Shown here in pieces: positions 5,790 to 53,495 of a stretch of 64,000 nucleotides of DNA; the stretch's first letter is position 1; each line of letters opens with the position of its first letter. Made by a program: the position numbers and the translations under genes. The notes beneath the pieces are model-generated. The model did not search any database and had not been told where the DNA came from. It saw only the letters and a list, made by a program, of their open reading frames with translations. Source of the stretch: a phage; sequence record PZ386961.1, one strand, 5' to 3'.

Positions 5790-5851
5790 TATGGCTCTCC
5801 ATATGAAAAAGCCCCATACTAAGTACAGGGCTTTAAAGTAACTTTTAGAGA

Positions 5852-6709
5852 TTAGTCTTCTGTATCGAAGTCTTCATCTTCTTCGTCATCTGGGTCTGGC
5901 AAATCTTCATCATCACCATCATCAGAATCATTCGAAGGTTTGTGGTCTTTTGCATCTTCTTCAGTGATTTCACCGTTATCTTCGACACCATCAAGACCAA
6001 GCATAGCCAGTTCATCTTCATCCAGTTCAGGTTCACCGTTAGCACCGTTACCACCAGTGTAAGGCACAAGAGTATCAATGATAAACTGTTCCTGAATAGG
6101 TTTTGTCAGAACATTGTTCTCAAAAGTATAGAAGTGAGTAGAAAGAATCACACTACCAAAAGAACCGTTACCAACTGCAATATCTGGATGAATTACATCA
6201 TAGTTCTTATCATCTTCATGTTTATCAGATGCTTGAGCTTTGATTTTCTTCATCGGCTGCTTAACAGCTACACGCTTACCATTTACTTCTTCAATAAGCA
6301 TAACAGGGAATGACTGTTTAGCTGTCCATACAGCACCATCTTTATAAGCTGCTGCACGACTTACTTTCAAGATGTAGTAAGTGTCTGCTTCAAAAGGTGG
6401 TTTACAACCAAACTTCTCTTCGAAGTCGTCTGCATCAACTGCTTCAGTAGTAACTTTATCCCAACCTTCTGGGTTTTTCTTAGACTTAGTAAACTCTTTA
6501 AACAGTTTGTTACCGTCTTCTGCCAGAATTGATACGCTGTAGTTACAGTCTTTGCCTGGGAATTTCTTATCAATAGACTTACCTTTTCCCGGACGTGGTG
6601 AAGTGTTCAGGTAATAAAACCAGACATCTTTCAGCAGGTATCGCAGAGTTTGGCGTTCAGTGCCATTGTATTTCTCTACCGGAGCTTTCATTTTAACAAC
6701 TTTAGACAT
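5852..6709 (-). CDS. single-stranded DNA-binding protein (acidic C-terminal tail)
   Basis: 285 aa with highly acidic C-terminus DEDLPDPDDEEDEDFDTED as in T7 gp2.5-type SSBs; sits in replication module. Confidence 0.5.
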   Translation of the reverse strand: MSKVVKMKAPVEKYNGTERQTLRYLLKDVWFYYLNTSPRPGKGKSIDKKFPGKDCNYSVSILAEDGNKLFKEFTKSKKNPEGWDKVTTEAVDADDFEEKFGCKPPFEADTYYILKVSRAAAYKDGAVWTAKQSFPVMLIEEVNGKRVAVKQPMKKIKAQASDKHEDDKNYDVIHPDIAVGNGSFGSVILSTHFYTFENNVLTKPIQEQFIIDTLVPYTGGNGANGEPELDEDELAMLGLDGVEDNGEITEEDAKDHKPSNDSDDGDDEDLPDPDDEEDEDFDTED

Positions 6710-7215: not shown

Positions 7216-9175
7216 CCTCGCTTAATACAGGTGGAATCATTGAGCTTTGACGCTGTTCTTCAGTATAGACTTCACCAGTCTCACGGTCAAACACTTCATC
7301 CTCATAATGAGGTAAAGAGTCGTCATAATGGTCTTCAGCTTCACCAATACCAAACTGTTGACGGATATTTTCTGCTGCACCATCAATGTCAACACCACAC
7401 CCAGAAGCTTTGATAAGACGCCCTGTGTCTGGATTGTACCAAGTATGACCAGCAATACCTGTTGACTTACCATGACGACGACACTTAGTTAACTTTATTT
7501 TTGTCAAGTTTTTCTTAACAGGGTCTGGGTCAACCTTGTTACGCATTAACAGAATGTTGTTCATGGAAATCTGGAAATACGCACCAGAGCCTTTAATATC
7601 CTCTTCAGAGATGTCTCCACCTTCAGAGTTGGCTTTCTGACCACCTGCACTCTTACGAACGTGACAGACGTTAACCTGTGCATACTGGTAGCGTTTGCAA
7701 CGACGCAATAGCTCAGACAAAACTTCCTCTTCATCCGTATCTGAACGTGACAGAGCCAACGTAATAGGGTCAAGAATAATAATCTTACAGTCTAAACTGT
7801 TAACAAGATAGTCAACAAATTCCAGCAGGTTGTCTTGGTCAATCGCCCCTTGATGGTCTACGATGTGGATACGACGACCTTTAGATAGTTCTGCGTGTGC
7901 TTCCTTTAATTCATCCCAATCACGTTCGTCATAAGGAATCTCAGAAATCTGTTTGCTCAGGTGAATTGCACAGAGCATCTCCATCAACTCTTCATAGGTA
8001 TCTTCTACCGGAATTACACCAATATTGTAATCGGTTTCCTTCCAAGCTGAATAAATCATCTCACGAGTGTAAGCTGATTTACCTACTGAAGATGGTGCTG
8101 CCAGAGTTGTAATCTCTCCTAAACCATAACCACCGTAAGTTAGTCTGTTCAAATCCCCGAAAGATTCTGGGAAAGGAATCAAAGGAATCTGACCACGATT
8201 CTTCATTGCCTCAAAACCATCTGCAAAGTTCTTGATACCAGCAGGGCAATAACGAGGTGCGTTGTAGATACGCTGCTTAAATCCTTCCAGAACTGTATCT
8301 TTCTCTTTATAGAACTTTGTCCACCATTCGTTTAGGTCTTTTACACCCTCTGGATACTGGAATAAACGAACCTTCTCAATAGGTAGGATACCAGCAGCCT
8401 CTTTGGTAGCTTTAGCACCTGCTTCATCGTTATCAAAGCACAAGTAAATTTCATCAAATGATGTAATGTACTGATAGTTATCTTTGATAGACTTAATGTT
8501 TGCACCTGACGGAACAGATACGTGACAGTAATTCTTACGACGAGACTTATCTTTAATCGCCAAAGAAGTCATGTAGATTGCTGTCGCACATTCCATCTCA
8601 CCTTCCCAGATGAATAGACGGTTACCACCTTCTGGAGCAATCCATGAGCCGAACATTGCCAGTTCACCTTTAATGTCTCCAACACCACCAGAAAAGTCTT
8701 TTAGCTTACCTCGTAGGTGTTCTTTTGGATGGTCTTCTGGGTAACGGTGACGAACACGGTAGCCAACATGCTCTAGCTTGCCATCTTCATTGCGTTTGTA
8801 AGTTGGGTAGAAATGTGCGTCAATTTCACCGTCACTGTCAATGTCAACCTTGATACCCAAACGCTCAAGAACTTTTGCAGGAATCTTCCTGTCTTTTAAG
8901 TCCATTGCTTCAAGGTTTTCTTTTACATCGTCTAAATCCATTCCACGGAAAGTACGGTTTTTATTGTCTGGACCAGTAGAATAAGTGCTCACGATTTGTC
9001 CTTTATCAAAATCCCACTCTGGGAAACCTTTGTTACAACTAAAGCAAGTCATCGAATAAGAATCATCGTCATGATGATAGATGGAACCAGCATCTGATGA
9101 ACCACAACGTGGACATGCACAATGACCAATAAACTGACCAGCCTCTTTCAATTTACGACCTTTAGACATTAGCAC
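7184..9175 (-). CDS. DNA primase-helicase (T7 gp4-like)
   Basis: N-terminal zinc ribbon CxxC...CxxC, central TOPRIM-like region, C-terminal helicase Walker A APSSVGKS and Walker B IIILDP. Confidence 0.85.
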   Translation of the reverse strand: MLMSKGRKLKEAGQFIGHCACPRCGSSDAGSIYHHDDDSYSMTCFSCNKGFPEWDFDKGQIVSTYSTGPDNKNRTFRGMDLDDVKENLEAMDLKDRKIPAKVLERLGIKVDIDSDGEIDAHFYPTYKRNEDGKLEHVGYRVRHRYPEDHPKEHLRGKLKDFSGGVGDIKGELAMFGSWIAPEGGNRLFIWEGEMECATAIYMTSLAIKDKSRRKNYCHVSVPSGANIKSIKDNYQYITSFDEIYLCFDNDEAGAKATKEAAGILPIEKVRLFQYPEGVKDLNEWWTKFYKEKDTVLEGFKQRIYNAPRYCPAGIKNFADGFEAMKNRGQIPLIPFPESFGDLNRLTYGGYGLGEITTLAAPSSVGKSAYTREMIYSAWKETDYNIGVIPVEDTYEELMEMLCAIHLSKQISEIPYDERDWDELKEAHAELSKGRRIHIVDHQGAIDQDNLLEFVDYLVNSLDCKIIILDPITLALSRSDTDEEEVLSELLRRCKRYQYAQVNVCHVRKSAGGQKANSEGGDISEEDIKGSGAYFQISMNNILLMRNKVDPDPVKKNLTKIKLTKCRRHGKSTGIAGHTWYNPDTGRLIKASGCGVDIDGAAENIRQQFGIGEAEDHYDDSLPHYEDEVFDRETGEVYTEEQRQSSMIPPVLSEDADDCPFETE

Positions 9176-20478: not shown

Positions 20479-20994
20479 ATGATTGATATCTTCTTACAAG
20501 ATGCTCATGCAGACTTCCTTAAAGAGATGCTTAAAAAGTTTATGGCTTCACAGTATGAGAATGAAGCATCTTTTAAAATAGTTACATGTGGCGATGAAGC
20601 TGGTTTTGTTGAGATTGAACATGAAGGTACTGGAAAGACTGTTTGTAAGCTACCTGATAGTATGTTCTCTAGTGCATTCTTAACAAAGACTAGTATAAAT
20701 GTTAAGCTTGTACCTCAGATTGAAACATACTCTGGTACAGATTACCCTAAAGGTTTCAAGTCATTGATGAAGTACTTCTTAGATGACTTTGTGGGTAATC
20801 TTCTGAGGGAGGTAAAAGAAAGTCGTACAGTGTTAACTGTAGAGAACATGGGAGGAACTATAAAGGTTACTTCTGACTGTTTTGTGATGAGCCTCTTCGA
20901 CTTCGTTCCTAAGAACTTTGATGGTATTCTGGATGAAGAAGATGACTGTGTAGACTTTATATTGGTTCTTGAACCAGTTTTTGAGGTTAAATAA
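20479..20994 (+). CDS. hypothetical protein
   Basis: 171 aa, acidic. Confidence 0.5.
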   Translation: MIDIFLQDAHADFLKEMLKKFMASQYENEASFKIVTCGDEAGFVEIEHEGTGKTVCKLPDSMFSSAFLTKTSINVKLVPQIETYSGTDYPKGFKSLMKYFLDDFVGNLLREVKESRTVLTVENMGGTIKVTSDCFVMSLFDFVPKNFDGILDEEDDCVDFILVLEPVFEVK

Positions 20995-23381: not shown

Positions 23382-25751
23382 TTAAGCAGTTCTTACCCAA
23401 GCCATTAACTTATAGAACTTGTTAGTAACACTGAATGCTGAACCAGAACCAGTACCACCTGTGTTACCACTAACTGTGTGGCTGTGAGCACCAATACCAA
23501 CAGTGTGGCTGTGAGCACCTGTTGTATTTGTTACACCTGTCCAAGTCCTTGACGCTTGGAAATCAGCAGCAGCACCGTAAGTGAAGTTAGAGCCTGTGAA
23601 GCCATGTGAAGACTGAGAACTACCCATCTTAAACGCACCACTAGCAGTGTAGAATGAACTATTATCACTTCTGAACCAACCAACCACACCAGTAATCTCC
23701 ATAGTACCTCTGTTGTGGTTATGGTTACCAGTTGTACTAGAAGTTTTAGTACCATAATCAAATGACGAAGTAGTCGCAGAGAAACTATGCGTGTGTGAAG
23801 GCAAGTTACCAACAGCTAATGTTACAGAGTCTGAACCACCAGTTGTAGCAACATCTGAACCGTTTGCTGCTGCAATTCTAATAGTTCTACCAACACCATT
23901 GTTCAGGTACGTCCAAGTTAACCCAGGAAGTGCTGTGTTAGGGTTGACATTACTGTTAAACCACGTCACAATCCCTACTGGATAGATTTTATTCAGGTCT
24001 GTAGAGTCACTAATTGCATCTGCAATCTTCTGGTCAGTTTCAGCTTTAGTGTATGCACCGATGTCTGAAGGGGTTGGTTTATCTTTGTCTGTATAGATTT
24101 TAGACCAAGCACTCTCAAAACCATAACCGTCTCTTGCTGACCTATACCAAAAACCGCCATTGTTGTAGTTAAATTTTAACTGAGTTGCTGGTGTAGAACT
24201 GCTACCCTGATACATATGGTAGACCAGTTGTGTTGAACCACCAGATTTCGTTGTAACATTATACAGACCAGTTTTAGCATTCCAAGCAATTCCATCACTA
24301 TCACCTACCTCTGTACCAGAACCAGTAGATACAGCAAGCATGTACCTAGAGTTTGCGACAGATTGCGTATAATATCTAGCATCTAAGTTAGAGAAATCTG
24401 AAGGTTGAATCTGCCCTGCTAGGGTTAATGTCTTATTGATACTTGCAGATGAGTTACCTAAAATTAACCAAGTGCCAGAGAAGCTGTTGTTTAAGGCTAC
24501 ATCAGTAGAATTTGGGTCACCAACACCTAACCACCATCTTGATACATTGGCAGCGTCCTTACCACGAATATACAATGGCCTATTCTGAGTAGAGTTTTTA
24601 ATAACTAAACCTTCACCATCACTAACAACTGTTTGCGCACCATTAAAAGTATTTTGTGCATTAGTTCTTGCAATCGTACTTAATGTTGCTACCGGAATAT
24701 ATCTAGAGTCAATGTTAGCCCAATCTGAAGGTTGGACTTGTCCAGTGATTTGCACAGTTTTATTGATACCAATAGTAGTACCTAGTGAAACCTGTGAACC
24801 TGTAAGGTAGTTATAAATGTTTAGACGTGTCTCGTCAGAATCTGTACCAACATACCATTTATTTGTTCCATCAGACTTCTTACCGAGAATGTAAAGTGCT
24901 GTATTTGCATCAGTATTCTGCAAAGTAATGGCATTAGCATTCTTCTTAGCAACAAGGTTAGTGAAAGTGTTAGCACCTGTAAAAGTATTATTGCCAGCTA
25001 ACTGTGCAAATCTCTGATTAGCAACTGTCTGAGTGAAGTATCTCGCATCTAAGTTAGAGAAATCTGAAGGTTGAACTTGACCAGTGATTGCTAAAGACTT
25101 ATTAACAGAGACATTACTTGCAACAGTCAAGGCTGAGTTGTATTTGTTATTGTACAGCTTTACTTCGTCAGAGCCATTACTACCAATACCAACCCACCAT
25201 CTAGTCGAACCATCTAGGTTTACACCTTCGATATATTGTGCATTATTTGCATTTTGGTTTCTAAGGCGAAGTAAGTTAGCATCACCTTGAATATTTTGAG
25301 TTCCAGAAAATGTGTTTGTGATAGCAAGTCTTGCGTATCTTGCATCATTCTCTTCATTAGTCCTCATACCAAGCTCATTAGGACTTGGCTTATTCAGAGT
25401 ATGATAAACAGTTGCTGACCTTGAAGCATCTGCAATAGTTAGTTTAAGACCATTTGCGTTAATTTTAAAAGTCTTTAAAATATCCCCAATAGTAATCTCA
25501 GAAGAGCCTGTAGGGTCAAATACAGCCTTACCACCATAAAGTAACTTGACAATACCTAAATCCCCCGTCATAGTGCTCCCAGCAATCTGAACAAACCTTT
25601 CTAGTTTGAAGGAAGCTAAGAAGTCTTGATAGGTCATTCTGCGGTCTTCATCACCCAACATTTCAGGTCTTTTCTTAACTCTGATGTGCAATAGGTCTTC
25701 TGAACGAATTGTGTCGATTGAGTTTAATTGACTCAATTTGTAATCTGCCAT
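23382..25751 (-). CDS. tail fibre protein (His-rich HxH repeat tip)
   Basis: 789 aa; C-terminal repeats NLPSHTHSF, GAHSHTVGIGAHSHTV; follows baseplate genes. Confidence 0.7.
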   Translation of the reverse strand: MADYKLSQLNSIDTIRSEDLLHIRVKKRPEMLGDEDRRMTYQDFLASFKLERFVQIAGSTMTGDLGIVKLLYGGKAVFDPTGSSEITIGDILKTFKINANGLKLTIADASRSATVYHTLNKPSPNELGMRTNEENDARYARLAITNTFSGTQNIQGDANLLRLRNQNANNAQYIEGVNLDGSTRWWVGIGSNGSDEVKLYNNKYNSALTVASNVSVNKSLAITGQVQPSDFSNLDARYFTQTVANQRFAQLAGNNTFTGANTFTNLVAKKNANAITLQNTDANTALYILGKKSDGTNKWYVGTDSDETRLNIYNYLTGSQVSLGTTIGINKTVQITGQVQPSDWANIDSRYIPVATLSTIARTNAQNTFNGAQTVVSDGEGLVIKNSTQNRPLYIRGKDAANVSRWWLGVGDPNSTDVALNNSFSGTWLILGNSSASINKTLTLAGQIQPSDFSNLDARYYTQSVANSRYMLAVSTGSGTEVGDSDGIAWNAKTGLYNVTTKSGGSTQLVYHMYQGSSSTPATQLKFNYNNGGFWYRSARDGYGFESAWSKIYTDKDKPTPSDIGAYTKAETDQKIADAISDSTDLNKIYPVGIVTWFNSNVNPNTALPGLTWTYLNNGVGRTIRIAAANGSDVATTGGSDSVTLAVGNLPSHTHSFSATTSSFDYGTKTSSTTGNHNHNRGTMEITGVVGWFRSDNSSFYTASGAFKMGSSQSSHGFTGSNFTYGAAADFQASRTWTGVTNTTGAHSHTVGIGAHSHTVSGNTGGTGSGSAFSVTNKFYKLMAWVRTA

Positions 25752-46504: not shown

Positions 46505-46528
46505 AAAAAAGACGGCACAGAGACCGTC
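46505..46528 (-). terminator. rho-independent terminator
   Basis: Stem gacgg/ccgtc followed by T6 on minus strand. Confidence 0.45.
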
Positions 46529-46690: not shown

Positions 46691-46766
46691 TGGAGAATCC
46701 GAAGGGACTCGAACCCTTATAAACCTGTTTTGCAGACAGGCACATAGCCATTTCTGTCACGGATTC
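46691..46766 (-). tRNA. tRNA-Cys (anticodon GCA)
   Basis: Manual fold: acceptor gaatccg/cggattc, loop ctGCAaa, T-loop ttcgagt, discriminator U, encoded CCA. Confidence 0.75.
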
Positions 46767-46770
46767 AAAT

Positions 46771-46863
46771 TGGAGGAAGATACCAGACTTGAACTGGTAC
46801 ACCGATTTCTCAGCTACTGGCAGTTTAGCAAACTGCTCCCTTACCTTTTAGGGTTAATCTTCC
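46771..46863 (-). tRNA. tRNA-Ser (anticodon GCU), class II
   Basis: Manual fold: acceptor ggaagat/atcttcc, loop ttGCTaa, long variable arm, about 90 nt. Confidence 0.7.
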
Positions 46864-46865
46864 AT

Positions 46866-47600
46866 TTATTTCTGTAATGCGTTCTTCATTTCTGGTGTTG
46901 CAATAGTGTCAATTACACCAGTTTTACAAGCATCATCAAACCAGTCTGGTAAGATACCTGCTAAGAACCCATTGATATTCGTTTTAAGGTACTCTGCAAT
47001 AAGAGCAGCTTCTTCTTCAATCATCTGCACAACTTCATCTGCATAAGCTGTAATCTTTGAGATACCTTCATTAATCTTACTAACAGCTTGGTTAGCTAAA
47101 TCAGAAATAGTATCAAGACCTTTGTCAATAGCGTCTTGTAAGTCACTTAACACACCATTAACACCGTCTAGTGCACTGTTAATCGTATCAATAGCTTTTT
47201 GACCATACTCTGTAGCAACACCCATAATACCACTAAATGGTGTACAGCCAACTTGTTCACCTGCTGCACCCATAACATTAGAGTAACCTTTTGCTACCTG
47301 CATACGTGATGAAAACTCATCAATGGACTTTTGACCGTAATCTGTTAGTGTTTTGGTGGTTGATGTAGTGCTTGTCAGACTCGTGGTAAAGCTGTTAAGC
47401 AGAACTGTTGTAAGTCCAGCAGCAACAAGCTTATCCTTTACTGTAGGGTCTGATACAGAGCTAATAGAGCTTACAAGTGATGTAGAGGCAGCTACGGTTC
47501 CACCGAGAACTGCTGCACCAGTAATAAGGGGGTTAGAAAACCCTTTACCTGTTTTTAAGAGATTGAAAATCTCCTTACCTTGTTCTGTCATCTCTTTCAT
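46866..47600 (-). CDS. hypothetical Ser/Thr-rich protein embedded in tRNA cluster
   Basis: Start moved to ATG 47598-47600 because the track start (GTG 47663) overlaps a tRNA. Confidence 0.45.
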   Translation of the reverse strand: MKEMTEQGKEIFNLLKTGKGFSNPLITGAAVLGGTVAASTSLVSSISSVSDPTVKDKLVAAGLTTVLLNSFTTSLTSTTSTTKTLTDYGQKSIDEFSSRMQVAKGYSNVMGAAGEQVGCTPFSGIMGVATEYGQKAIDTINSALDGVNGVLSDLQDAIDKGLDTISDLANQAVSKINEGISKITAYADEVVQMIEEEAALIAEYLKTNINGFLAGILPDWFDDACKTGVIDTIATPEMKNALQK

Positions 47601-47616
47601 TAAGCACCTTTGAAAT

Positions 47617-47693
47617 TGGTAGTCCAGTGGGATTTGAACCCTCTTCTCATGTTTTTCAGACACGCGCTTTAACCATATAAGCTACTTGGACTA
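47617..47693 (-). tRNA. tRNA-Phe (anticodon GAA), non-canonical D-arm junction
   Basis: Manual fold: acceptor tagtcca/tggacta, loop ctGAAaa; extra nucleotides between acceptor and D-stem. Confidence 0.45.
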
Positions 47694-47698
47694 TAAAT

Positions 47699-47774
47699 TG
47701 GGGTGACCTACGGGATTTGAACCCGTATAGACCATGTTCACAGCATGGGTCATTACCATTTATGATAAGGCCAC
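47699..47774 (-). tRNA. tRNA-His (anticodon GUG)
   Basis: Manual fold: loop ctGTGaa, discriminator C, T-stem acggg/cccgt. Confidence 0.7.
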
Positions 47775-47805
47775 ATTTAAGGACTCTCGTAAGAATCCTT
47801 AGAAG

Positions 47806-47881
47806 TGGCAGCGGCATAAGGATTTGAACCTTAATAGGACAGCTTCAGAGACTGCTGCATTGCCAGTTATGCTATACCGCT
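47806..47881 (-). tRNA. tRNA-Gln (anticodon CUG)
   Basis: Manual fold: loop ctCTGaa, discriminator G, D-stem gcat/atgc. Confidence 0.65.
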
Positions 47882-47886
47882 AAATT

Positions 47887-47965
47887 TGGTACTCCATATC
47901 GGATTCGAACCGATACATAACACAGATTTTAAGTCTGGCCTCTCTGCCAATTGGAGTAATGGAGC
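47887..47965 (-). tRNA. class-I-like tRNA with leucine anticodon UAA (putative tRNA-Leu without long variable arm)
   Basis: Manual fold: loop ctTAAaa, discriminator A, T-loop ttcgaat, D-loop ccaattggcagag shared with the 48947 and 49526 tRNAs. Confidence 0.45.
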
Positions 47966-47967
47966 AT

Positions 47968-48043
47968 TGGCGGGGGATGTTGGAATTGAACCAACTTCTT
48001 CGATTTCAAAGACCGAGGTTTTAACCTTGTAAACTAATCCCCT
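47968..48043 (-). tRNA. tRNA-Gln (anticodon UUG)
   Basis: Manual fold: loop ctTTGaa, discriminator G, unpaired 1-72. Confidence 0.65.
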
Positions 48044-48051
48044 TTAAATCT

Positions 48052-48609
48052 TTACTTTCTCAGTGGATGAATAAAGAATGCCAACATAACTCTTTCCCTT
48101 GAGAATGCTCTTTCTTCTGGGACAACACTTTTAAGTTTCCATCCAACATAAATTCTCCAGTAAAACTGTTTACCGAAGACTTTAATTGATGGGATAAAAG
48201 CGAATAATCCCCAAGCATTACTGTTCCACATTAGGAGATAACCAGTCTGATTATCTTCAGGGTTAGAACTTACGTTGATATTACCTTTCCACTTAGTAAC
48301 ATCTCTTACATCTCTTCCTAATACATGGTAAGAGAAGTTATAAGCTTTGTTTCTCCAGAGCCATCCGACTCTTTGCATGTAGACACCTAGTTTACCAATC
48401 CATCTAATATTAGCCCATCTTTTAACGTGACCTTCATCACCATCAATTGGGTTGTCATATGTCTCCATCCATCTGAACCCGAAAGGTAAGTGTCCTTTCT
48501 TCTCACTGTAGAATGGAACTACAAAAGGTGCTAAGATAACTGCTAAGATTGCTGCAAATGGCTCTAACAAAGCTAAGAAAATCCATGAAGCATACTTTAA
48601 GTATCTCAT
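48052..48609 (-). CDS. hypothetical Trp-rich membrane protein embedded in tRNA cluster
   Basis: 185 aa, N-terminal hydrophobic helices. Confidence 0.5.
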   Translation of the reverse strand: MRYLKYASWIFLALLEPFAAILAVILAPFVVPFYSEKKGHLPFGFRWMETYDNPIDGDEGHVKRWANIRWIGKLGVYMQRVGWLWRNKAYNFSYHVLGRDVRDVTKWKGNINVSSNPEDNQTGYLLMWNSNAWGLFAFIPSIKVFGKQFYWRIYVGWKLKSVVPEERAFSRERVMLAFFIHPLRK

Positions 48610-48848
48610 TGTCTAATCCTCGTAAGGAGGTAAATGTTATTATTCGTTTCTAAACCTTCTGGTAAAACTGTCTCAAAAATAACACTCTTCAGATGTCTAC
48701 CACCAAAACAATCACGTATAAATCTTTCTACTCTAGCGTGGTCACATAAGTATCCCACTTTTAAGAAAATGTGGTGTTCAACACCAATGACCCTGACAAA
48801 CTCAATACTCTCACAGTTTTCATGTTCAACTACTGTTAATGTTTGCAT
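48606..48848 (-). CDS. hypothetical protein embedded in tRNA cluster
   Basis: 80 aa, ATGA coupling with downstream gene. Confidence 0.45.
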   Translation of the reverse strand: MQTLTVVEHENCESIEFVRVIGVEHHIFLKVGYLCDHARVERFIRDCFGGRHLKSVIFETVLPEGLETNNNIYLLTRIRQ

Positions 48849-48865
48849 AGTATCACCTTTTTATC

Positions 48866-48941
48866 TGGCGCAGGATAAGGGATTCGAACCCCTATTAACA
48901 GCTTCGTAGACTGTTGCTCTTTCCATTTGAACTAATCCTGC
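48866..48941 (-). tRNA. tRNA-Arg (anticodon ACG)
   Basis: Manual fold: acceptor gcaggat/atcctgc, loop ctACGaa. Confidence 0.7.
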
Positions 48942-48946
48942 AAAAT

Positions 48947-49024
48947 TGGTGTTCCAAGACGGATTCGAACCGTCACTAATACAAGGTTTGAGCTTGCATC
49001 CTCTGCCAATTGGGATACTGGAAC
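48947..49024 (-). tRNA. class-I-like tRNA with leucine anticodon CAA (putative tRNA-Leu without long variable arm)
   Basis: Manual fold: loop ctCAAac, discriminator A, paralogous D-arm to the 47887 and 49526 tRNAs. Confidence 0.45.
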
Positions 49025-49025
49025 A

Positions 49026-49100
49026 TGGTACTCACTAAAGGACTTGAACCTTTTTCTTCATCTTGTAAAGGTGATGTTTTACCATATAAACTAAGCGAGT
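49026..49100 (-). tRNA. tRNA-Val (anticodon UAC)
   Basis: Manual fold: loop ttTACaa, D-stem gttt/aaac, discriminator A. Confidence 0.65.
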
Positions 49101-49196
49101 ATGAAAGAGGTCTGAAGTTGTGCCGCTAACTCAACTTCGTGGAATTTGTTACGGTCTTCAGTTGACTCAAAGCGGTCTTTCACTTGACCTCTGAAT
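49101..49196 (-). other. structured non-tRNA spacer inside tRNA cluster
   Basis: Nested inverted repeats agaggtc...gacctct and gaagttg...caacttc; no T-arm. Confidence 0.3.
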
Positions 49197-49273
49197 TGGT
49201 GCTGCTCACAGGACTCGAACCTGCATTTCCATCCTTACAAGGGATGTGTAATAGCCAATTATACGAAAGCAGC
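49197..49273 (-). tRNA. tRNA-Thr (anticodon UGU)
   Basis: Manual fold: stem catcc/ggatg, loop ctTGTaa. Confidence 0.7.
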
Positions 49274-49279
49274 ATTGTT

Positions 49280-49354
49280 TGGAGCATCCAGAGGGAATCG
49301 AACCCTCAACCTCAGTTTGGAAGACTGTAATTTTCCCGTTTAAACTATGGATGC
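49280..49354 (-). tRNA. tRNA-Gly (anticodon UCC)
   Basis: Manual fold: loop ctTCCaa, discriminator U. Confidence 0.65.
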
Positions 49355-49360
49355 ACTAAT

Positions 49361-49436
49361 TGGTGGAGAAGCAGGGAATTGAACCCTGTACTTAAGTTTG
49401 CAAAACTTATGTTTTAACCATGTAAACTACATCCCC
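49361..49436 (-). tRNA. tRNA-Ala (anticodon UGC)
   Basis: Manual fold: loop ttTGCaa, G3-U70 wobble pair, discriminator A. Confidence 0.75.
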
Positions 49437-49442
49437 ATTGTT

Positions 49443-49518
49443 TGGTACAGGTGGAGGGAATTGAACCCATCGTCTTACTGATTAAGAGTCAGCCGCATAA
49501 CCATTTTGCTACACCTGC
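49443..49518 (-). tRNA. tRNA-Lys (anticodon CUU)
   Basis: Manual fold: loop ctCTTaa, discriminator A; imperfect T-stem shared with the 50741 paralog. Confidence 0.55.
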
Positions 49519-49525
49519 ATTAATT

Positions 49526-49602
49526 TGGTACACCTAGAGAGATTCGAACTCACACTGAGCAGATTCTAAGTCTGCTGCCTCTACCAGTTGGGCTATAGGT
49601 GC
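49526..49602 (-). tRNA. class-I-like tRNA with leucine anticodon UAG (putative tRNA-Leu without long variable arm)
   Basis: Manual fold: perfect stem gcaga/tctgc, loop ctTAGaa, discriminator A, about 74 nt. Confidence 0.5.
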
Positions 49603-49858
49603 ATTAAATCTTTTTAGAGAACTTCTAAGAACCTGAGCAACAAGGTTCCACAACAAGCGACTAATAACCTTAGAAGCCCTCTAAAAAGACCTAAATAGGT
49701 CTTTGCATAGTCTTGTTTAATCCGGTGACTAGAACCTTTGGAGAGCTTGATATTATCTCTTCTCCGTGACACCTACTAGGTGCTTTGACAGTGCACGACA
49801 ATACACGAGGGATAAACCGACAATGCGAACAAGCATGGACGGAGTAAATCTTATTAGG

Positions 49859-49946
49859 CGGTAAGTAAAGGAGTCGAACCCTCACCGTATCTCTACAGTG
49901 GCAACTGTTTTCAAGACAGTTTGGCTACCATTAGCCGCTACCTACC
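49859..49946 (-). tRNA. tRNA-Ser (anticodon UGA), class II
   Basis: Manual fold: loop ctTGAaa, long variable arm, 3-bp D-stem, discriminator G, CCA not encoded. Confidence 0.65.
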
Positions 49947-49959
49947 CCTAATAAGACTT

Positions 49960-50042
49960 TGGCATGGGACGGAGGAGTTGAACCCCTTTGAAACGGTGTT
50001 GGAAGCCGTTGCTCATGCCTTAGAGTCTTAACATCGTCCCAT
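49960..50042 (-). tRNA. tRNA-Trp-like (anticodon CCA), non-canonical (about 8 extra nt between acceptor and D-stem)
   Basis: Perfect acceptor atgggac/gtcccat, stem aacgg/ccgtt with ttCCAac loop, D-region too long for standard fold. Confidence 0.35.
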
Positions 50043-50184
50043 ACTATAATTCGAAGCTTACCGTATTATCTCAACACTGTAAAGCCCCTTCTCAGATTAT
50101 TTACATGTTCTGGAAAACATGAGATACAGACCACCTCCCTACAGGAAGACCCGCTTAGGTCGTCTAAGTAATCTGCTAACTATT

Positions 50185-50261
50185 TGGCACACCCTACAGG
50201 ATTCGAACCTGTAACTCAATGATTAGAAGTCATTTGCTCTGTCCAGTTGAACTAAGGGTGC
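50185..50261 (-). tRNA. tRNA-Arg (anticodon UCU)
   Basis: Manual fold: stem aatga/tcatt, loop ctTCTaa. Confidence 0.7.
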
Positions 50262-50463
50262 ATTAATCTTTAAAGACTCTCTTAGAAAGCCCTTAAAGAT
50301 GCCCACCTTATTAATCATACCGTGGGCGAGTACGCCAAATTCTTTGATGAGGGATTGGAAGACCTCACTGGTGTTTAGCCTATCAAGCTACTGCCAGAAA
50401 AACATTGTCGTTTGCATTTATTTTAAATTTGCAAAATAGACGCTACGCAACGAAAACTAAGGT

Positions 50464-50492
50464 TACTATAAAGTAGTCACATCTCAATGTCA
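50464..50492 (-). promoter_or_regulatory. sigma70-like promoter TTGACA-N17-TATAGT inside tRNA cluster
   Basis: Minus-strand hexamers read directly; faces tRNA-Arg(UCU) and downstream tRNAs. Confidence 0.5.
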
Positions 50493-50507
50493 ACAACTTT
50501 ATTGAAA

Positions 50508-50583
50508 TTGGTACTGGTAGGTGGAATCGAACCACCGATGTTCCCTTATCAGGGGAGTGTTATAACCTTCTTAACTATACCAG
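50508..50583 (-). tRNA. tRNA-Ile (anticodon GAU)
   Basis: Manual fold: loop ctGATaa, D-stem gtta/taac, discriminator A. Confidence 0.7.
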
Positions 50584-50584
50584 C

Positions 50585-50661
50585 TTGGAGGTTCAGATGG
50601 GAATCGAACCCACATTCATAGGGCTTATGAGACCCTTGCATTACCTTATCTGCGACTGAAC
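50585..50661 (-). tRNA. tRNA-Met (anticodon CAU)
   Basis: Manual fold: acceptor ggttcag/ctgaacc, loop ctCATaa. Confidence 0.6.
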
Positions 50662-50740
50662 CAGAATAAGTACCCTAGTTAGAGAAACTGTTGAGTGGGT
50701 GTTTCCAGCCGCGCAGGTGTTTCTCAGTTAAGGGTGAATT

Positions 50741-50816
50741 TGGTAGAAGTGGAGGGATTCGAACCCATCGCCTGTCAGATTAAAAGTCTGCCGCATCACC
50801 ATTCTGCTACACTTCC
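50741..50816 (-). tRNA. tRNA-Lys (anticodon UUU)
   Basis: Manual fold: loop ctTTTaa; sequence paralog of the 49443 tRNA. Confidence 0.55.
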
Positions 50817-50820
50817 ATTA

Positions 50821-50963
50821 AATTATCTTTGTAGATAAGCTACCCAGACTTGCTTAAGGTCTGTAGCGATGTGCCTTTTGGGTTTAAATCTAGAATTTAC
50901 CCTTTCACCCTTTGTGGTCGCATACTCACAGGTAAGCTTAATAACTTATCTACAAAGATAATT
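50821..50963. repeat. 19-bp perfect inverted repeat (aattatctttgtagataag / cttatctacaaagataatt) enclosing about 105 nt
   Basis: Both arms read directly at 50821-50839 and 50945-50963. Confidence 0.6.
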
Positions 50964-51017
50964 ACCAGACCGTTGTTTATCATCTTAAGTGCTACCATTA
51001 CACCAACTCGACATCTG

Positions 51018-51050
51018 CCGAGTGAAGGAATCGAACCTTCGCCTTTTCTT
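51018..51050 (-). other. isolated tRNA T-arm-like module (gaagg-ttcgatt-ccttc) followed by hairpin actcg/cgagt; tRNA fragment or tRNA-like ncRNA
   Basis: No matching 5' acceptor strand nearby. Confidence 0.3.
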
Positions 51051-51243
51051 TACCGGAGAAATAGATTGTTTAAAGTTTGCTGTAAACGGTCTTCTGTAAA
51101 TTTGTTGAGCCAGACCAAGTTTTAAATTTTCAAAATTAAATTGGCTTGAAATTTCATACATTCTTGCTGTATTTGGTCTTCTGCTCCTTTAAAGAATACT
51201 CGTAAGAACTCTTTAAGGGAGGGGCTAAATAGCCCTCTCAAAA

Positions 51244-51321
51244 TTGGCGGTTACGAAGGGATTTGAACCCTCATCATCTCCCGTGACAGGGGAGTATTTT
51301 AACCAAATTAAACTACATAAC
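51244..51321 (-). tRNA. tRNA-Asp (anticodon GUC)
   Basis: Manual fold: stem ctccc/gggag, loop ctGTCac, discriminator G. Confidence 0.7.
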
Positions 51322-51326
51322 CTTTA

Positions 51327-51414
51327 TTGGTGTGCCGTGTAGGAGTCGAACCTACCGAGTCTCAATGACAAGGGATTTACAGTCCCCACCGCTACCATCT
51401 ACGGGATAACGACA
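51327..51414 (-). tRNA. tRNA-Tyr (anticodon GUA), class II
   Basis: Manual fold: loop ctGTAaa, long variable arm, discriminator A. Confidence 0.65.
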
Positions 51415-51424
51415 CATTTAAATT

Positions 51425-51501
51425 TGGCGGTTAGTCAGGGATTCGAACCCTGTGCCATTCGCTTAACAGGCGACCGCACATACCTTATGTGCTTCCTAAC
51501 C
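51425..51501 (-). tRNA. tRNA-Asn (anticodon GUU)
   Basis: Manual fold: loop ctGTTaa, discriminator G. Confidence 0.65.
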
Positions 51502-51584
51502 ATGTTTAGTATTACCAGACCGTATCTTTCAATTTTTCCGCTAAAAATTTAATAAGTATTGCTGTAAACGGTCTTCTGTAAATT

Positions 51585-51660
51585 TGGAGGCGGGTGCAGG
51601 AGTCGAACCTGCCGATACCATGCTAATGAGACATGTGAGACGCCCTTTCTCTATACCCGC
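51585..51660 (-). tRNA. tRNA with CAU anticodon (initiator Met or Ile2-type)
   Basis: Manual fold: loop ctCATta, unpaired 1-72, D-stem gaga/tctc. Confidence 0.5.
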
Positions 51661-51752
51661 AATTCTTAATGACCAGACCAAATCTCTTCTTTGTCCGATT
51701 TACCTTCAGATGAATAAGATTAAGTTTGCTGTAATTGGTCTTCTGTCAAAAC

Positions 51753-51830
51753 TGGCGTTCCAGAAGGGATTTGAACCCTCAAATATCCACTTTGAAAGAG
51801 TGGTGACTTTACCATTTTGTCCACTGGAAC
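51753..51830 (-). tRNA. tRNA-Glu (anticodon UUC)
   Basis: Manual fold: stem ccact/agtgg, loop ctTTCaa, discriminator G. Confidence 0.7.
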
Positions 51831-51837
51831 ATTAATT

Positions 51838-51914
51838 TGGTCTCTGTTGGAGGACTTGAACCTCCGGCCTTACCGCCCCAAACGGAACGCTCTACCAAGC
51901 TGAGCTAAACAGAG
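51838..51914 (-). tRNA. tRNA-Pro (anticodon UGG)
   Basis: Manual fold: acceptor ctctgtt/aacagag, D-stem gctc/gagc, loop ttTGGgg. Confidence 0.65.
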
Positions 51915-52032
51915 ATAAACTTTTCAAACTCTATGTAACCACTTTAACATTATTTTTTAGTGGTTGTCAAGAACTTTTTTAAAATATTTTTCAGTATCTT
52001 AGAAAAGCTCTCATTTCGTTTCTATGTAGAAC

Positions 52033-52061
52033 ATATTAAAGGGTATTAAACACATTGTCAA
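52033..52061 (-). promoter_or_regulatory. sigma70-like promoter TTGACA-N17-TAATAT upstream of tRNA cluster
   Basis: Minus-strand hexamers read directly; about 110 nt upstream of tRNA-Pro. Confidence 0.5.
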
Positions 52062-52079: not shown

Positions 52080-53495
52080 TTACCAGATATAACGGTCAAT
52101 CATTACTGCTTTGAGCATTACACTGATTGGGTCAAACTTCTCACCACCAAGCAGAGCTTTTAAAGTGGCTGGAGAGAACCCTGATACCATTGCTACACCG
52201 TTATCCTTAATAGATACTTCGCAAGTGCCATTACGGTTTGCTAAGTACCAGAATACCAGTTGTGGCATCTCATATCCAGATTTTTCGTACTTATCTCGAA
52301 TTGCTTCAAAGTTTGTACGACCATTAGCACCATCAACCTGATTAAACTCCATATCAGAGAAGATAATAAGCTTACTTGGCATATCTTTCTGAGTCAAGTT
52401 GTTTCTTTTACCTGTTTCAAGAATGCGGTCAAAAGCTGCTTGTAAGTTAGTTGAGCCATATTCAACGTGTCGCATCACCTGACGATGACGGTTTCGTAAA
52501 TCACCACTCAGTTCGATGAAGTGAGGGTTTGTCGAATAAACCATCAACTCATTCTTAAAGCAACCTGTATTGCGTTCTGCTACATACAAGGCAAGTGATA
52601 CACCAATATCCAGAGCAGTAATGGAGCCAAAATTCACCCAAGACATTGAACTTGATACATCAGACATACACAAGATGTTTTCACCTTCTGCCATCCAGTT
52701 TGGTAGTGCTTTCCACTGCTCATTAGCAACATCTGCATTACCATACTTGACAGATTTAATCACATCGTATGGGTAAACAGCACCAGCGTTAATCTTAGTC
52801 TCACCTTTTGATAAGGACTCGATGTAAGCTTTGTAACGCTCTCCATCTTTACGGTTAAACAGTTTTTGGTAACGTGCAGCAGCAAGTGAAGGAATCTTAC
52901 TGTAGTCAATCTTACCAAACTCATTAGCAGAGATTTTTTGCTCAACTGTATCAGATAGTGCAGACAACAGTGTGCGGTACTCTTTCTCACTCAAGTTGGC
53001 AAACTTGCAGAAACGTTTTACAAACTGCTTATGACGTGGTTTGACTCGTGGTAACCACTTAGCCGCCAAACCTGCTGTTGCAGGGTCTAGTAATGCTGCT
53101 TCTAAATGCTTGAAGGCATCTGTCTCGAAACGAGTACCTACAAAGATTTTGAAGTCATCAAAACGACCAAGTTCTGCAATCTTATCCATAATGCGAAGAA
53201 CCTGCGTAGGCTCTAAAACTTTATCTTCAATTGCTTGAAGCAAAACAGTTCTGAAGGCTTTACGCTCACCCATACCTTCTCGTACATCTCGCATATGAAG
53301 CAAAATACGAACTGCAACATCAACATCCTCACGCAAAGCTTTGTAGAACAAGTCTGGTAAGATTTCTACATTGCTACGGCTTGAACCAGCAGCTTTGTAA
53401 AAGTCTACAAGAGCAGACATTGATGAAGTATGGTTTACAGCACCATTTTCAGTTCGACCTGCATGAAGGTGCGCATGTTTAAATAATTCGCTCAT
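52080..53495 (-). CDS. vWA-domain protein with helical N-terminal domain (Ro60/TROVE-like or DUF2828-like)
   Basis: C-terminal MIDAS motif in ILCMSDVSSSMSW (DxSxS) and downstream IIFSDMEF; N-terminal about 270 aa helical. Confidence 0.5.
   Translation of the reverse strand: MSELFKHAHLHAGRTENGAVNHTSSMSALVDFYKAAGSSRSNVEILPDLFYKALREDVDVAVRILLHMRDVREGMGERKAFRTVLLQAIEDKVLEPTQVLRIMDKIAELGRFDDFKIFVGTRFETDAFKHLEAALLDPATAGLAAKWLPRVKPRHKQFVKRFCKFANLSEKEYRTLLSALSDTVEQKISANEFGKIDYSKIPSLAAARYQKLFNRKDGERYKAYIESLSKGETKINAGAVYPYDVIKSVKYGNADVANEQWKALPNWMAEGENILCMSDVSSSMSWVNFGSITALDIGVSLALYVAERNTGCFKNELMVYSTNPHFIELSGDLRNRHRQVMRHVEYGSTNLQAAFDRILETGKRNNLTQKDMPSKLIIFSDMEFNQVDGANGRTNFEAIRDKYEKSGYEMPQLVFWYLANRNGTCEVSIKDNGVAMVSGFSPATLKALLGGEKFDPISVMLKAVMIDRYIW

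Follow-up and report, generated by a model that had tools for sequence, protein, structure and literature searches.

According to textbooks and recent reviews, bacterial and phage tRNA-Leu are defined in part by a long variable arm. Type I tRNA-Leu, which has a short variable loop, is found in the searchable literature from mitochondria and Streptomyces coelicolor only. Here, we describe three short tRNA genes with leucine anticodons in the tRNA cluster of a Felix O1-like coliphage (i.e., a Felixounavirus; sequence record PZ386961.1). They lie in a stretch of 64,000 nucleotides (nt), which, at its full length, is referred to below as the window. On the basis of their features, we consider it highly probable that the three genes are working leucine tRNAs on a type I (i.e., short variable loop) frame. 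Hundreds of GenBank records already list such genes as tRNA-Leu, and to that extent the genes are known; the type I architecture of the phage tRNA-Leu and its breadth, apparently unrecorded, appear to be new. No description of short-arm leucine tRNAs in phages was found in the open full-text literature (subscription journals were outside this scope, and an earlier mention is possible).

Leucine tRNAs encoded by phages include those of T4 and T5. The tRNA-Leu(UAG) of T5, a virulent coliphage with a large tRNA cluster, carries A73, A15:U48, and an encoded CCA, as do the leucine tRNAs of the window, but it belongs to class II, with a length of 85 nt, a variable arm of 13 nt, G9, and G13. The type I tRNA-Leu(CAA) of S. 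coelicolor has a variable loop of 5 nt (ACAGC) and coexists with type II leucine tRNAs under one leucyl-tRNA synthetase (LeuRS) (PMC6614811). For this tRNA, 5 nt including position 48 constitute the minimum variable loop for good charging (PMC6614811). A73 is not an identity element for S. coelicolor LeuRS (PMC6614811), unlike for the Escherichia coli enzyme (PMC9976931), and the Streptomyces LeuRS was called the sole prokaryotic enzyme that charges both types of tRNA-Leu (Fan et al. 2019, PMC6614811). The phage tRNAs likewise combine a leucine anticodon with a loop of at least 5 nt that keeps nucleotide 48, and they coexist with the type II set of the host during infection. Compared by its published description (PMC6614811), the S. 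coelicolor tRNA differs from them in being chromosomal and in carrying C48 rather than U48. Human mitochondrial tRNA-Leu(UUR) is also a type I tRNA without a long arm, and its identity rests on A73 and A14 (PMC9976931); however, it is organellar, has a structurally loose anticodon arm, is served by its own dedicated LeuRS, and, within the comparisons made, shows no common descent with the phage tRNAs. According to the account given in PMC9976931, engineered E. coli tRNA-Leu without the arm (Larkin et al. 2002; Asahara et al. 1993, 1998) was charged and edited by E. coli LeuRS given A73 and the tertiary contacts that link the D-loop with the T-loop. These molecules are laboratory constructs, whereas the phage leucine tRNAs are natural.

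Three short leucine tRNA genes in a cluster of 26 tRNA genes

Over the tRNA cluster, the window shares 97% identity with Escherichia typing phage 1 and with wV8. The cluster (46691..51914; ARAGORN and Rfam) comprises 26 tRNA genes, including the three leucine tRNA genes, all on the minus strand. The CCA end is encoded in 25 of the 26 (the exception is the tRNA-Ser with the anticodon UGA), and the spacers, which are as short as 1 to 7 nt, suggest polycistronic precursors. An earlier note on this DNA, made from the letters alone, had proposed three short leucine tRNAs with the anticodons UAA, CAA, and UAG. ARAGORN and the Rfam tRNA model (RF00005; gathering score, 29 bits) agree on all three: tRNA-Leu(UAA) at 47887..47965 (76 nt plus encoded CCA; 47.5 bits), tRNA-Leu(CAA) at 48947..49024 (75 nt plus encoded CCA; 44.0 bits), and tRNA-Leu(UAG) at 49526..49602 (74 nt plus encoded CCA; 57.3 bits), each on the minus strand and above the gathering score. 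Automated folding by ARAGORN returned the anticodons as proposed and no long variable arm, and the cloverleaf parse bore out the lengths of 74 to 76 nt, the short variable regions, the common D-arm, and A73.

All three tRNAs form a cloverleaf with an acceptor stem of 7 base pairs (bp), U8, A14, G18G19, U33, and a T-loop (UUCGAAU) of the form UUCRANY; G1.U72 is present in the UAA and UAG tRNAs. Their variable regions (GUUAUGU, 7 nt, in the UAA tRNA; AUUAGU, 6 nt, in the CAA tRNA; UCAGU, 5 nt, in the UAG tRNA) are unpaired, contain no stem, and each end with U, and are thus unlike a class II arm, which exceeds 10 nt and forms a stem-loop. The loop of the UAG tRNA fits the textbook class I range of 4 to 5 nt, while those of the other two are longer; a length of 6 nt is also found in other tRNAs of the cluster. 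In the D-arm common to the three, a 3-bp stem is followed by C13-A14-A15-Y-U-G18-G19-Y-A-G-A22, and C13.A22 is unpaired in all of them, in place of the usual class I D stem of 4 bp with a Watson-Crick 13:22 pair. The phage leucine tRNAs are hybrids, of class II type in the D-arm and of class I type in the variable loop.

The description of the three genes as paralogous in the earlier note holds only loosely. The UAA and CAA tRNAs are 75% identical and are mutual best matches (the mean of all cluster tRNA pairs is 60%), but the UAG tRNA matches the Lys and Arg tRNAs (73%) just as well as it does the leucine tRNA with the anticodon UAA (71%).

The serine and tyrosine tRNAs of the same cluster, which serve as internal controls, retain long variable arms of 15 to 21 nt, as had been observed before: tRNA-Ser(GCU) at 46771..46863 (93 nt), tRNA-Ser(UGA) at 49857..49946 (90 nt), and tRNA-Tyr(GUA) at 51328..51415 (88 nt), all on the minus strand. 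ARAGORN detected no long-arm tRNA-Leu among the 26 tRNAs of the window, in agreement with the earlier observation. The possibility of a long-arm leucine gene missed beyond the window was ruled out, since the complete genome of typing phage 1 contains the same 26 tRNAs, with only these three for leucine (ARAGORN). The annotation of that complete genome lists no LeuRS or other aminoacyl-tRNA synthetase, and megablast gave no match to the leucine tRNA genes of the window in 5,426 complete E. coli genomes. Within phages, the genes are highly conserved: 216 of 264 phage records match tRNA-Leu(UAA) at an identity of 99% or more, as do 160 of 292 for tRNA-Leu(CAA), and the number of records at this level ranges, per gene, from 54 to 216 of the 260 to 290 matching Ounavirinae records.

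Leucine identity elements

E. coli leuW, leuZ, and leuX were taken as the host comparison set. Leucylation in E. coli requires A73, A15-U48, G18G19, and A20a (Giege and Eriani 2023, PMC9976931). All three phage tRNAs carry E. coli-type leucine identity features (i.e., A73, U8-A14, the A15:U48 Levitt pair, and U54-A58), together with G18G19 and A20a in the same register as in E. coli tRNA-Leu, within an 11-nt D-arm that has a 3-bp stem and an unpaired 13:22. The consensus of their D-arms, NNC-CAAYUGGYAGA-GNN, has the length and register of the leuW D-arm (GCC-CAACUGGUAGA-GGC in the phage versus GCG-AAAUUGGUAGA-CGC in leuW). Most class I tRNAs lack the architecture that the phage tRNAs share with host tRNA-Leu. 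The host tRNAs leuZ (UAA), leuX (CAA), and leuW (UAG) share with the phage tRNAs the anticodons, A73, U8-A14, A15:U48, the D-arm architecture, and U54-A58, and G1.U72 of the phage UAA tRNA recurs in leuZ. The two sets differ in the variable arm (13 to 15 nt in the host tRNAs, 5 to 7 nt in those of the phage) and at positions 9, 13, and 32 (G9, A/G13, and U32 in E. coli; A9, C13, and C32 in the phage), and their overall identity is only 53 to 64%.

For E. coli LeuRS, the anticodon and the long arm are not crucial, the sequence and fold of the arm were uncorrelated with leucylation in systematic evolution of ligands by exponential enrichment (SELEX), and E. coli tRNA-Leu variants without the long arm remain active (PMC9976931). 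Hallmarks of tRNA-Ala and tRNA-Ser, the two other identities that are read independently of the anticodon, are absent from the phage tRNAs: the 3:70 pairs are U-A, U-A, and A-U (i.e., no G3:U70), and both the long arm and G73 are missing. Nor do the three show a hallmark of any further identity. In Shigella phage Sf14, the orthologues received their highest tRNAscan-SE isotype scores for Leu (60.2 for UAA, 49.1 for CAA, and 67.4 for UAG), in a study without any mention of the variable arm (PMC12482277); the CAA gene of Sf14 is 100% identical to that of the window. Of the two alternatives left by the earlier note, these identity features and D- and T-loop contacts support the first, class I-like leucine tRNAs. 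From this set of features, the three are most likely true leucine tRNAs charged by the host LeuRS.

The anticodon loops also depart from those of the host. Position 32 is C in all three leucine tRNAs and U in E. coli, the UAG tRNA has A37 in place of the G37 of leuW (i.e., the m1G37 site), and C38 of the CAA tRNA (loop CUCAAAC) disrupts the A36-A37-A38 motif required for i6A37 and hence for TrmL methylation. Judging from these bases, the phage leucine tRNAs may carry fewer host modifications.

Codon use and predicted decoding

In E. coli, CTG makes up about half of the leucine codons, and the UUA, UUG, and CUA/CUU-type codons are served by the single-copy minor isoacceptors leuZ, leuX, and leuW. 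The phage is AT rich (GC content, 39%), and the leucine codon shares in the window are 27% TTA, 29% CTT, 13% TTG, 12% CTA, and 14% CTG. In a crude check of codon meaning on NrdA and ThyA, Leu of the E. coli protein stood opposite 16 of 40 phage TTA, TTG, and CTA codons and opposite 13 of 43 of the CTT, CTC, and CTG codons, which are left to host tRNAs. The three anticodons are sense anticodons, and the low-powered NrdA/ThyA alignment gave no shift of codon meaning of the kind expected of suppressor or recoding tRNAs. Within its power, the check supports standard decoding.

In the mechanism that we propose, the three leucine tRNAs would be transcribed together with the whole 26-tRNA cluster, excised by host RNase P and 3' processing with the CCA already encoded, and leucylated by the single LeuRS of the host. 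The UAA tRNA would then read UUA and UUG, the CAA tRNA would read UUG, and the UAG tRNA would read CUA as well as CUG/CUU. Together, these account for the majority of leucine codons in the phage. The three tRNAs would in this way supply the UUA, UUG, and CUA/CUU codons, which the AT-rich phage uses far more than E. coli does. As far as anticodons and identity elements can tell, their function is almost certainly ordinary leucine decoding.

Short leucine tRNAs in other phages

A BLAST search with the UAG tRNA retrieved full-length ungapped relatives (74 to 82% identity), annotated as tRNA-Leu, from phages whose hosts belong to several bacterial phyla. The hosts of these phages include Mycobacterium (76 records), Streptomyces (46 records), Pseudomonas, Gordonia, Enterococcus, and Cronobacter/Klebsiella/Enterobacter, and a crAss-like phage is also represented. 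Phages with short leucine tRNAs thus span proteobacterial, actinobacterial, firmicute, and Bacteroidetes hosts. ARAGORN was run on eight phage loci (ArcherS7, Forza, CR3, PE09, crAss cr111_1, StarPlatinum, Bop, and T5). All leucine tRNAs are short in ArcherS7 and Forza (three each) and in CR3, PE09, and crAss cr111_1 (two each); StarPlatinum and the Enterococcus phage Bop have one short and one long leucine tRNA each, and the single leucine tRNA of T5 is the class II molecule described above. The Ser and Tyr tRNAs are long in all eight loci by ARAGORN. The StarPlatinum record annotates a tRNA-Tyr of 72 nt (20859-20930), which ARAGORN did not call.

Two samples were drawn from IMG/VR, one of them restricted to tRNAs with an encoded CCA. 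The first was collected by a D-arm motif (TANNCCAACTGGTAGAG). Among the matches listed, 81 of the 88 motif-bearing tRNAs have a leucine anticodon, all 81 are 74 to 78 nt long, and all six leucine anticodons are represented; because the motif is tied to leucine anticodons in this way, the short leucine tRNAs amount to more than chance. A few tRNAs called "Ser" or "Tyr" by ARAGORN in this motif-selected sample have a variable loop of 6 nt or less; these, and the 72-nt tRNA-Tyr of StarPlatinum, may be mispredictions or rare short Tyr/Ser tRNAs. The second sample was selected independently of leucine, by a pattern that only G73 tRNAs can match, in order to avoid circularity. Among the matches listed there, the variable region of tRNAs with leucine anticodons is bimodal, with 5 to 7 nt in 22 of 59 and 9 to 17 nt in the rest, while the short form occurs in none of 61 Ser and none of 18 Tyr tRNAs. 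The statement in the earlier note that phage tRNA-Leu is normally class II is therefore half right: about 37% of the leucine tRNAs listed in this sample are short.

The short leucine tRNAs of the second sample have the same identity elements as those of the window. Among the matches listed, all 22 carry A73 and 21 of them carry A15:U48, versus 50% and 24%, respectively, of 404 other class I tRNAs of the same loci. The leucine-type D-arm occurs in 93 of 152 short leucine tRNAs versus 7 of 1052 other class I tRNAs (among the matches listed), and both a long and a short leucine tRNA are present in 8 of the 29 leucine-bearing loci listed in the leucine-independent sample. Viral short leucine tRNAs come in two styles, one with U8-A9 and C13 (as in the window) and one with U8-G9 and G13 or A13 (as in long-arm leucine tRNAs), which suggests more than one loss of the arm.

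An alignment of 64 diverse short leucine tRNAs, including the three of the window, has 98% of its base-pair cells paired and compensatory changes on both sides in 19 of 20 pairs. Its covariation score amounts to 1.02, compared with 0.23 for shuffles and at most 0.17 for slid controls. The set was drawn from ARAGORN predictions, so that cloverleaves were preselected; even so, the amount of compensatory change points to a living tRNA family rather than to decay. In the samples, the short form accounts for roughly a third or more of phage leucine tRNAs. Short-arm leucine tRNAs are a large, structurally conserved population in phages and are not peculiar to the phage of the window.

Short leucine tRNAs in cellular genomes

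The D-arm motif was also scanned against one genome per GTDB species. Among the matches listed, 41 of 120 lie inside a tRNA; 40 of these 41 tRNAs have a leucine anticodon, and 38 are short. Many of the short leucine tRNAs are single genes on megabase contigs of Actinomycetota (e.g., Frankia, Isoptericola, Thermoleophilaceae, and Nanopelagicales), and others lie within arrays of 14 to 22 tRNAs. A long-arm tRNA-Leu(UAA) of one Thermoleophilaceae genome is, with the arm excluded, 87 to 90% identical to short ones from related genomes, which indicates that the short form arises by plain deletion of the arm. The anticodons of the actinomycetotal short leucine tRNAs are UAA, CAA, UAG, GAG, and CAG, and so extend beyond the single Streptomyces CAA case of the literature.

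Predicted charging by the host enzyme and possible explanations for the short form

Several points weigh against working leucine tRNAs on a short frame. Fan et al. (2019, PMC6614811) saw no charging of the S. coelicolor type I tRNA-Leu(CAA) by E. coli LeuRS and described this enzyme as charging type II only. This result may not carry over to the phage tRNAs, because the S. coelicolor tRNA has C48 and not the required U48. In crystal structures of E. coli LeuRS with tRNA-Leu, the variable arm contacts K809 and R811 of the C-terminal domain (PMC12360207), and removal of the arm reduced the affinity for Aquifex LeuRS (PMC2377443); on both grounds, the phage leucine tRNAs may be weaker LeuRS substrates. 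The cloverleaf parse shows one stem mismatch in each of two tRNAs (C27.U43 in the anticodon stem of the UAA tRNA and U50.U64 in the T stem of the UAG tRNA), and the Rfam scores of these two are in the lower half of the cluster. The NrdA/ThyA comparison covers 83 codons at 32 to 33% protein identity, and the covariation set was preselected as described above. With these points taken into account, leucine tRNAs that work on a type I frame are still, in our assessment, the highly probable reading of the three genes.

As to why the arm is missing, the explanation that survives best, to which we give slightly less than an even chance, is a tolerated loss. The arm would have been deleted since bacterial LeuRS can do without it, under weaker kinetic selection on phage tRNAs, and the short form would have no extra function. 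The continued activity of arm-less E. coli tRNA-Leu variants (PMC9976931) is in line with such a loss. Among the matches listed, only leucine tRNAs are short (Ser, 0 of 61; Tyr, 0 of 18), in line with the known needs of the synthetases. Leucine would be the only short one, with Ser and Tyr never so in phages, because, among the bacterial synthetases for class II tRNAs, LeuRS is the only one that accepts a substrate without the arm. The two or more styles of the short form suggest several independent losses, the long and short members of the actinomycetotal pairs remain 87 to 90% identical outside the arm, and many phages hold both forms (8 of 29 leucine-bearing loci among the matches listed). 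However, the arm is near-universal in cellular genomes, which implies some cost of its loss, and the 8 to 10 nt saved are trivial. A frequency of about 37% among the matches listed, together with the accompanying change of G9 to A9, also looks like a settled alternative design rather than decay.

Counter-defence is a more doubtful explanation, to which we assign a minor share of the probability. Loss of the arm would evade toxins of the host or of rival elements that recognize class II tRNAs by the long arm, while charging is retained and leucine translation survives. Short-arm tRNA-Leu would then be a distinct lineage or a repeatedly evolved design, enriched in phages and selected as a LeuRS substrate hidden from toxins or nucleases directed at class II tRNAs, a proposal that we hold just as tentatively. 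Sequence changes are known to let phage tRNAs escape anticodon nucleases (PMC10264068; discussed in PMC13056530), and a preprint reports that the abortive-infection toxin AbiEii probably favors class II tRNAs, like MenT3. Short leucine tRNAs are enriched in viral contigs relative to the level reported for bacteria, and the anticodon loops of the window's tRNAs differ from those of the host, with C32 in all three and A37 in place of host G37 in the UAG tRNA. Conversely, for E. coli or Salmonella there is no known toxin that attacks tRNA-Leu by way of its arm, the Ser and Tyr tRNAs encoded by the same phages retain theirs and would remain vulnerable, short leucine tRNAs also occur on actinomycetotal chromosomes, and nothing within the window links the tRNAs to a defence system.

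It is very unlikely that the genes have no translational role and are decaying pseudogenes or tRNA-like decoys or regulators. The single stem mismatches of the UAA and UAG tRNAs fit such a state, and the available part of the Felix O1 genome paper lists some cluster members, though not the leucine genes, as "pseudo" by tRNAscan-SE. Near-identity across hundreds of Ounavirinae genomes argues against it, as do the intact CCA, T-loop, and D-loop tertiary partners, the strong compensatory variation across the wider short leucine family, and the fit of the anticodons to the preferred leucine codons of the phage.

The second alternative of the earlier note, a different identity in which another amino acid is charged and the UUR/CUR codons are partly recoded by the phage, is less likely still and is rejected here: it has the missing long arm as its sole structural hint, beside close isotype scores for the UAG orthologue of Sf14 (Leu, 67.4; Ile2, 65.7; Lys, 63.4; PMC12482277), whereas the leucine identity set is complete in all three tRNAs, the Sf14 scores are highest for Leu, alanyl-tRNA synthetase would find no G3:U70 and seryl-tRNA synthetase no G73 with a long arm, the anticodons suit no anticodon-reading synthetase, the D-arm motif accompanies a leucine anticodon in 81 of 88 viral and 40 of 41 cellular tRNAs among the matches listed, and, in the low-powered NrdA/ThyA alignment, leucine codons align with Leu or other hydrophobic residues of the E. 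coli homologues equally, whichever tRNA reads them.

The short leucine tRNAs lead to a choice: either ordinary bacterial LeuRS, including that of E. coli, accepts type I tRNA-Leu in vivo, or a large conserved class of phage tRNAs does something else. If counter-defence is true, loss of the arm would be the structural counterpart of the changes known from the anticodon loops of phage tRNAs, and, as a corollary, E. coli-type LeuRS would routinely charge type I tRNA-Leu during infection, contrary to the published view that limits this ability to the Streptomyces and mitochondrial enzymes. That the short form evades toxins aimed at class II tRNAs is offered as a testable idea. The phage tRNAs provide a natural test set for recognition by LeuRS, for which Felix O1-like phages on E. 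coli K-12 or Salmonella are a tractable system, and they may also serve as compact natural leucine tRNA scaffolds for tRNA engineering.

Neighboring genes and other features of the cluster

Two sigma-70-like promoter matches (51941..52061, minus strand) lie just upstream of the first tRNA gene (Pro) and are a possible promoter of the cluster. They are suggestive only, and shuffled sequence is expected to contain no fewer promoter-like sites than the cluster region does. A terminator-like hairpin (46511..46528, minus strand) lies downstream of the last tRNA gene (Cys), is followed by a T run, and is likewise only suggestive. Between 46400 and 52300, there are 11 terminator-like hairpins versus 4.3 ± 2.0 in shuffles, several of them within tRNA genes; tRNA stems, rather than genuine terminators, probably account for the excess.

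Open reading frames (ORFs) are interspersed among the tRNA genes. One at 48052-48609 (minus strand; 185 amino acids [aa]) matches DUF7338, one at 46866-47663 (minus strand; about 244 aa) matches DUF7217, and an 80-aa ORF at 48606-48848 is without a Pfam match. ARAGORN found no transfer-messenger RNA (tmRNA) in the Felix O1-like window; in the unrelated, tRNA-rich phages StarPlatinum (23682-23961), Bop (8301-8648), and Forza (5813-6214), a tmRNA of the phage adjoins the tRNA cluster.

A second tRNA with a CAU anticodon (51585-51661, minus strand) is mismatched at U1.C72 and carries U73 and the loop CUCAUUA. It does not conform to a standard elongator tRNA-Met or to a standard initiator and could be an Ile2-type or aberrant tRNA.

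Just upstream of the cluster, a 471-aa ORF (52080-53495, minus strand) has Pfam matches to DUF2828 and DUF7788, and its RefSeq homologue in typing phage 1 bears the name "RNA-binding protein." Genes annotated as "Ro-like RNA binding protein" also stand beside the tRNA clusters of Streptomyces phage StarPlatinum (6077-7705) and Gordonia phage Forza (3825-5438), and the pairing of tRNA clusters with a Ro-like protein may be a recurring one.

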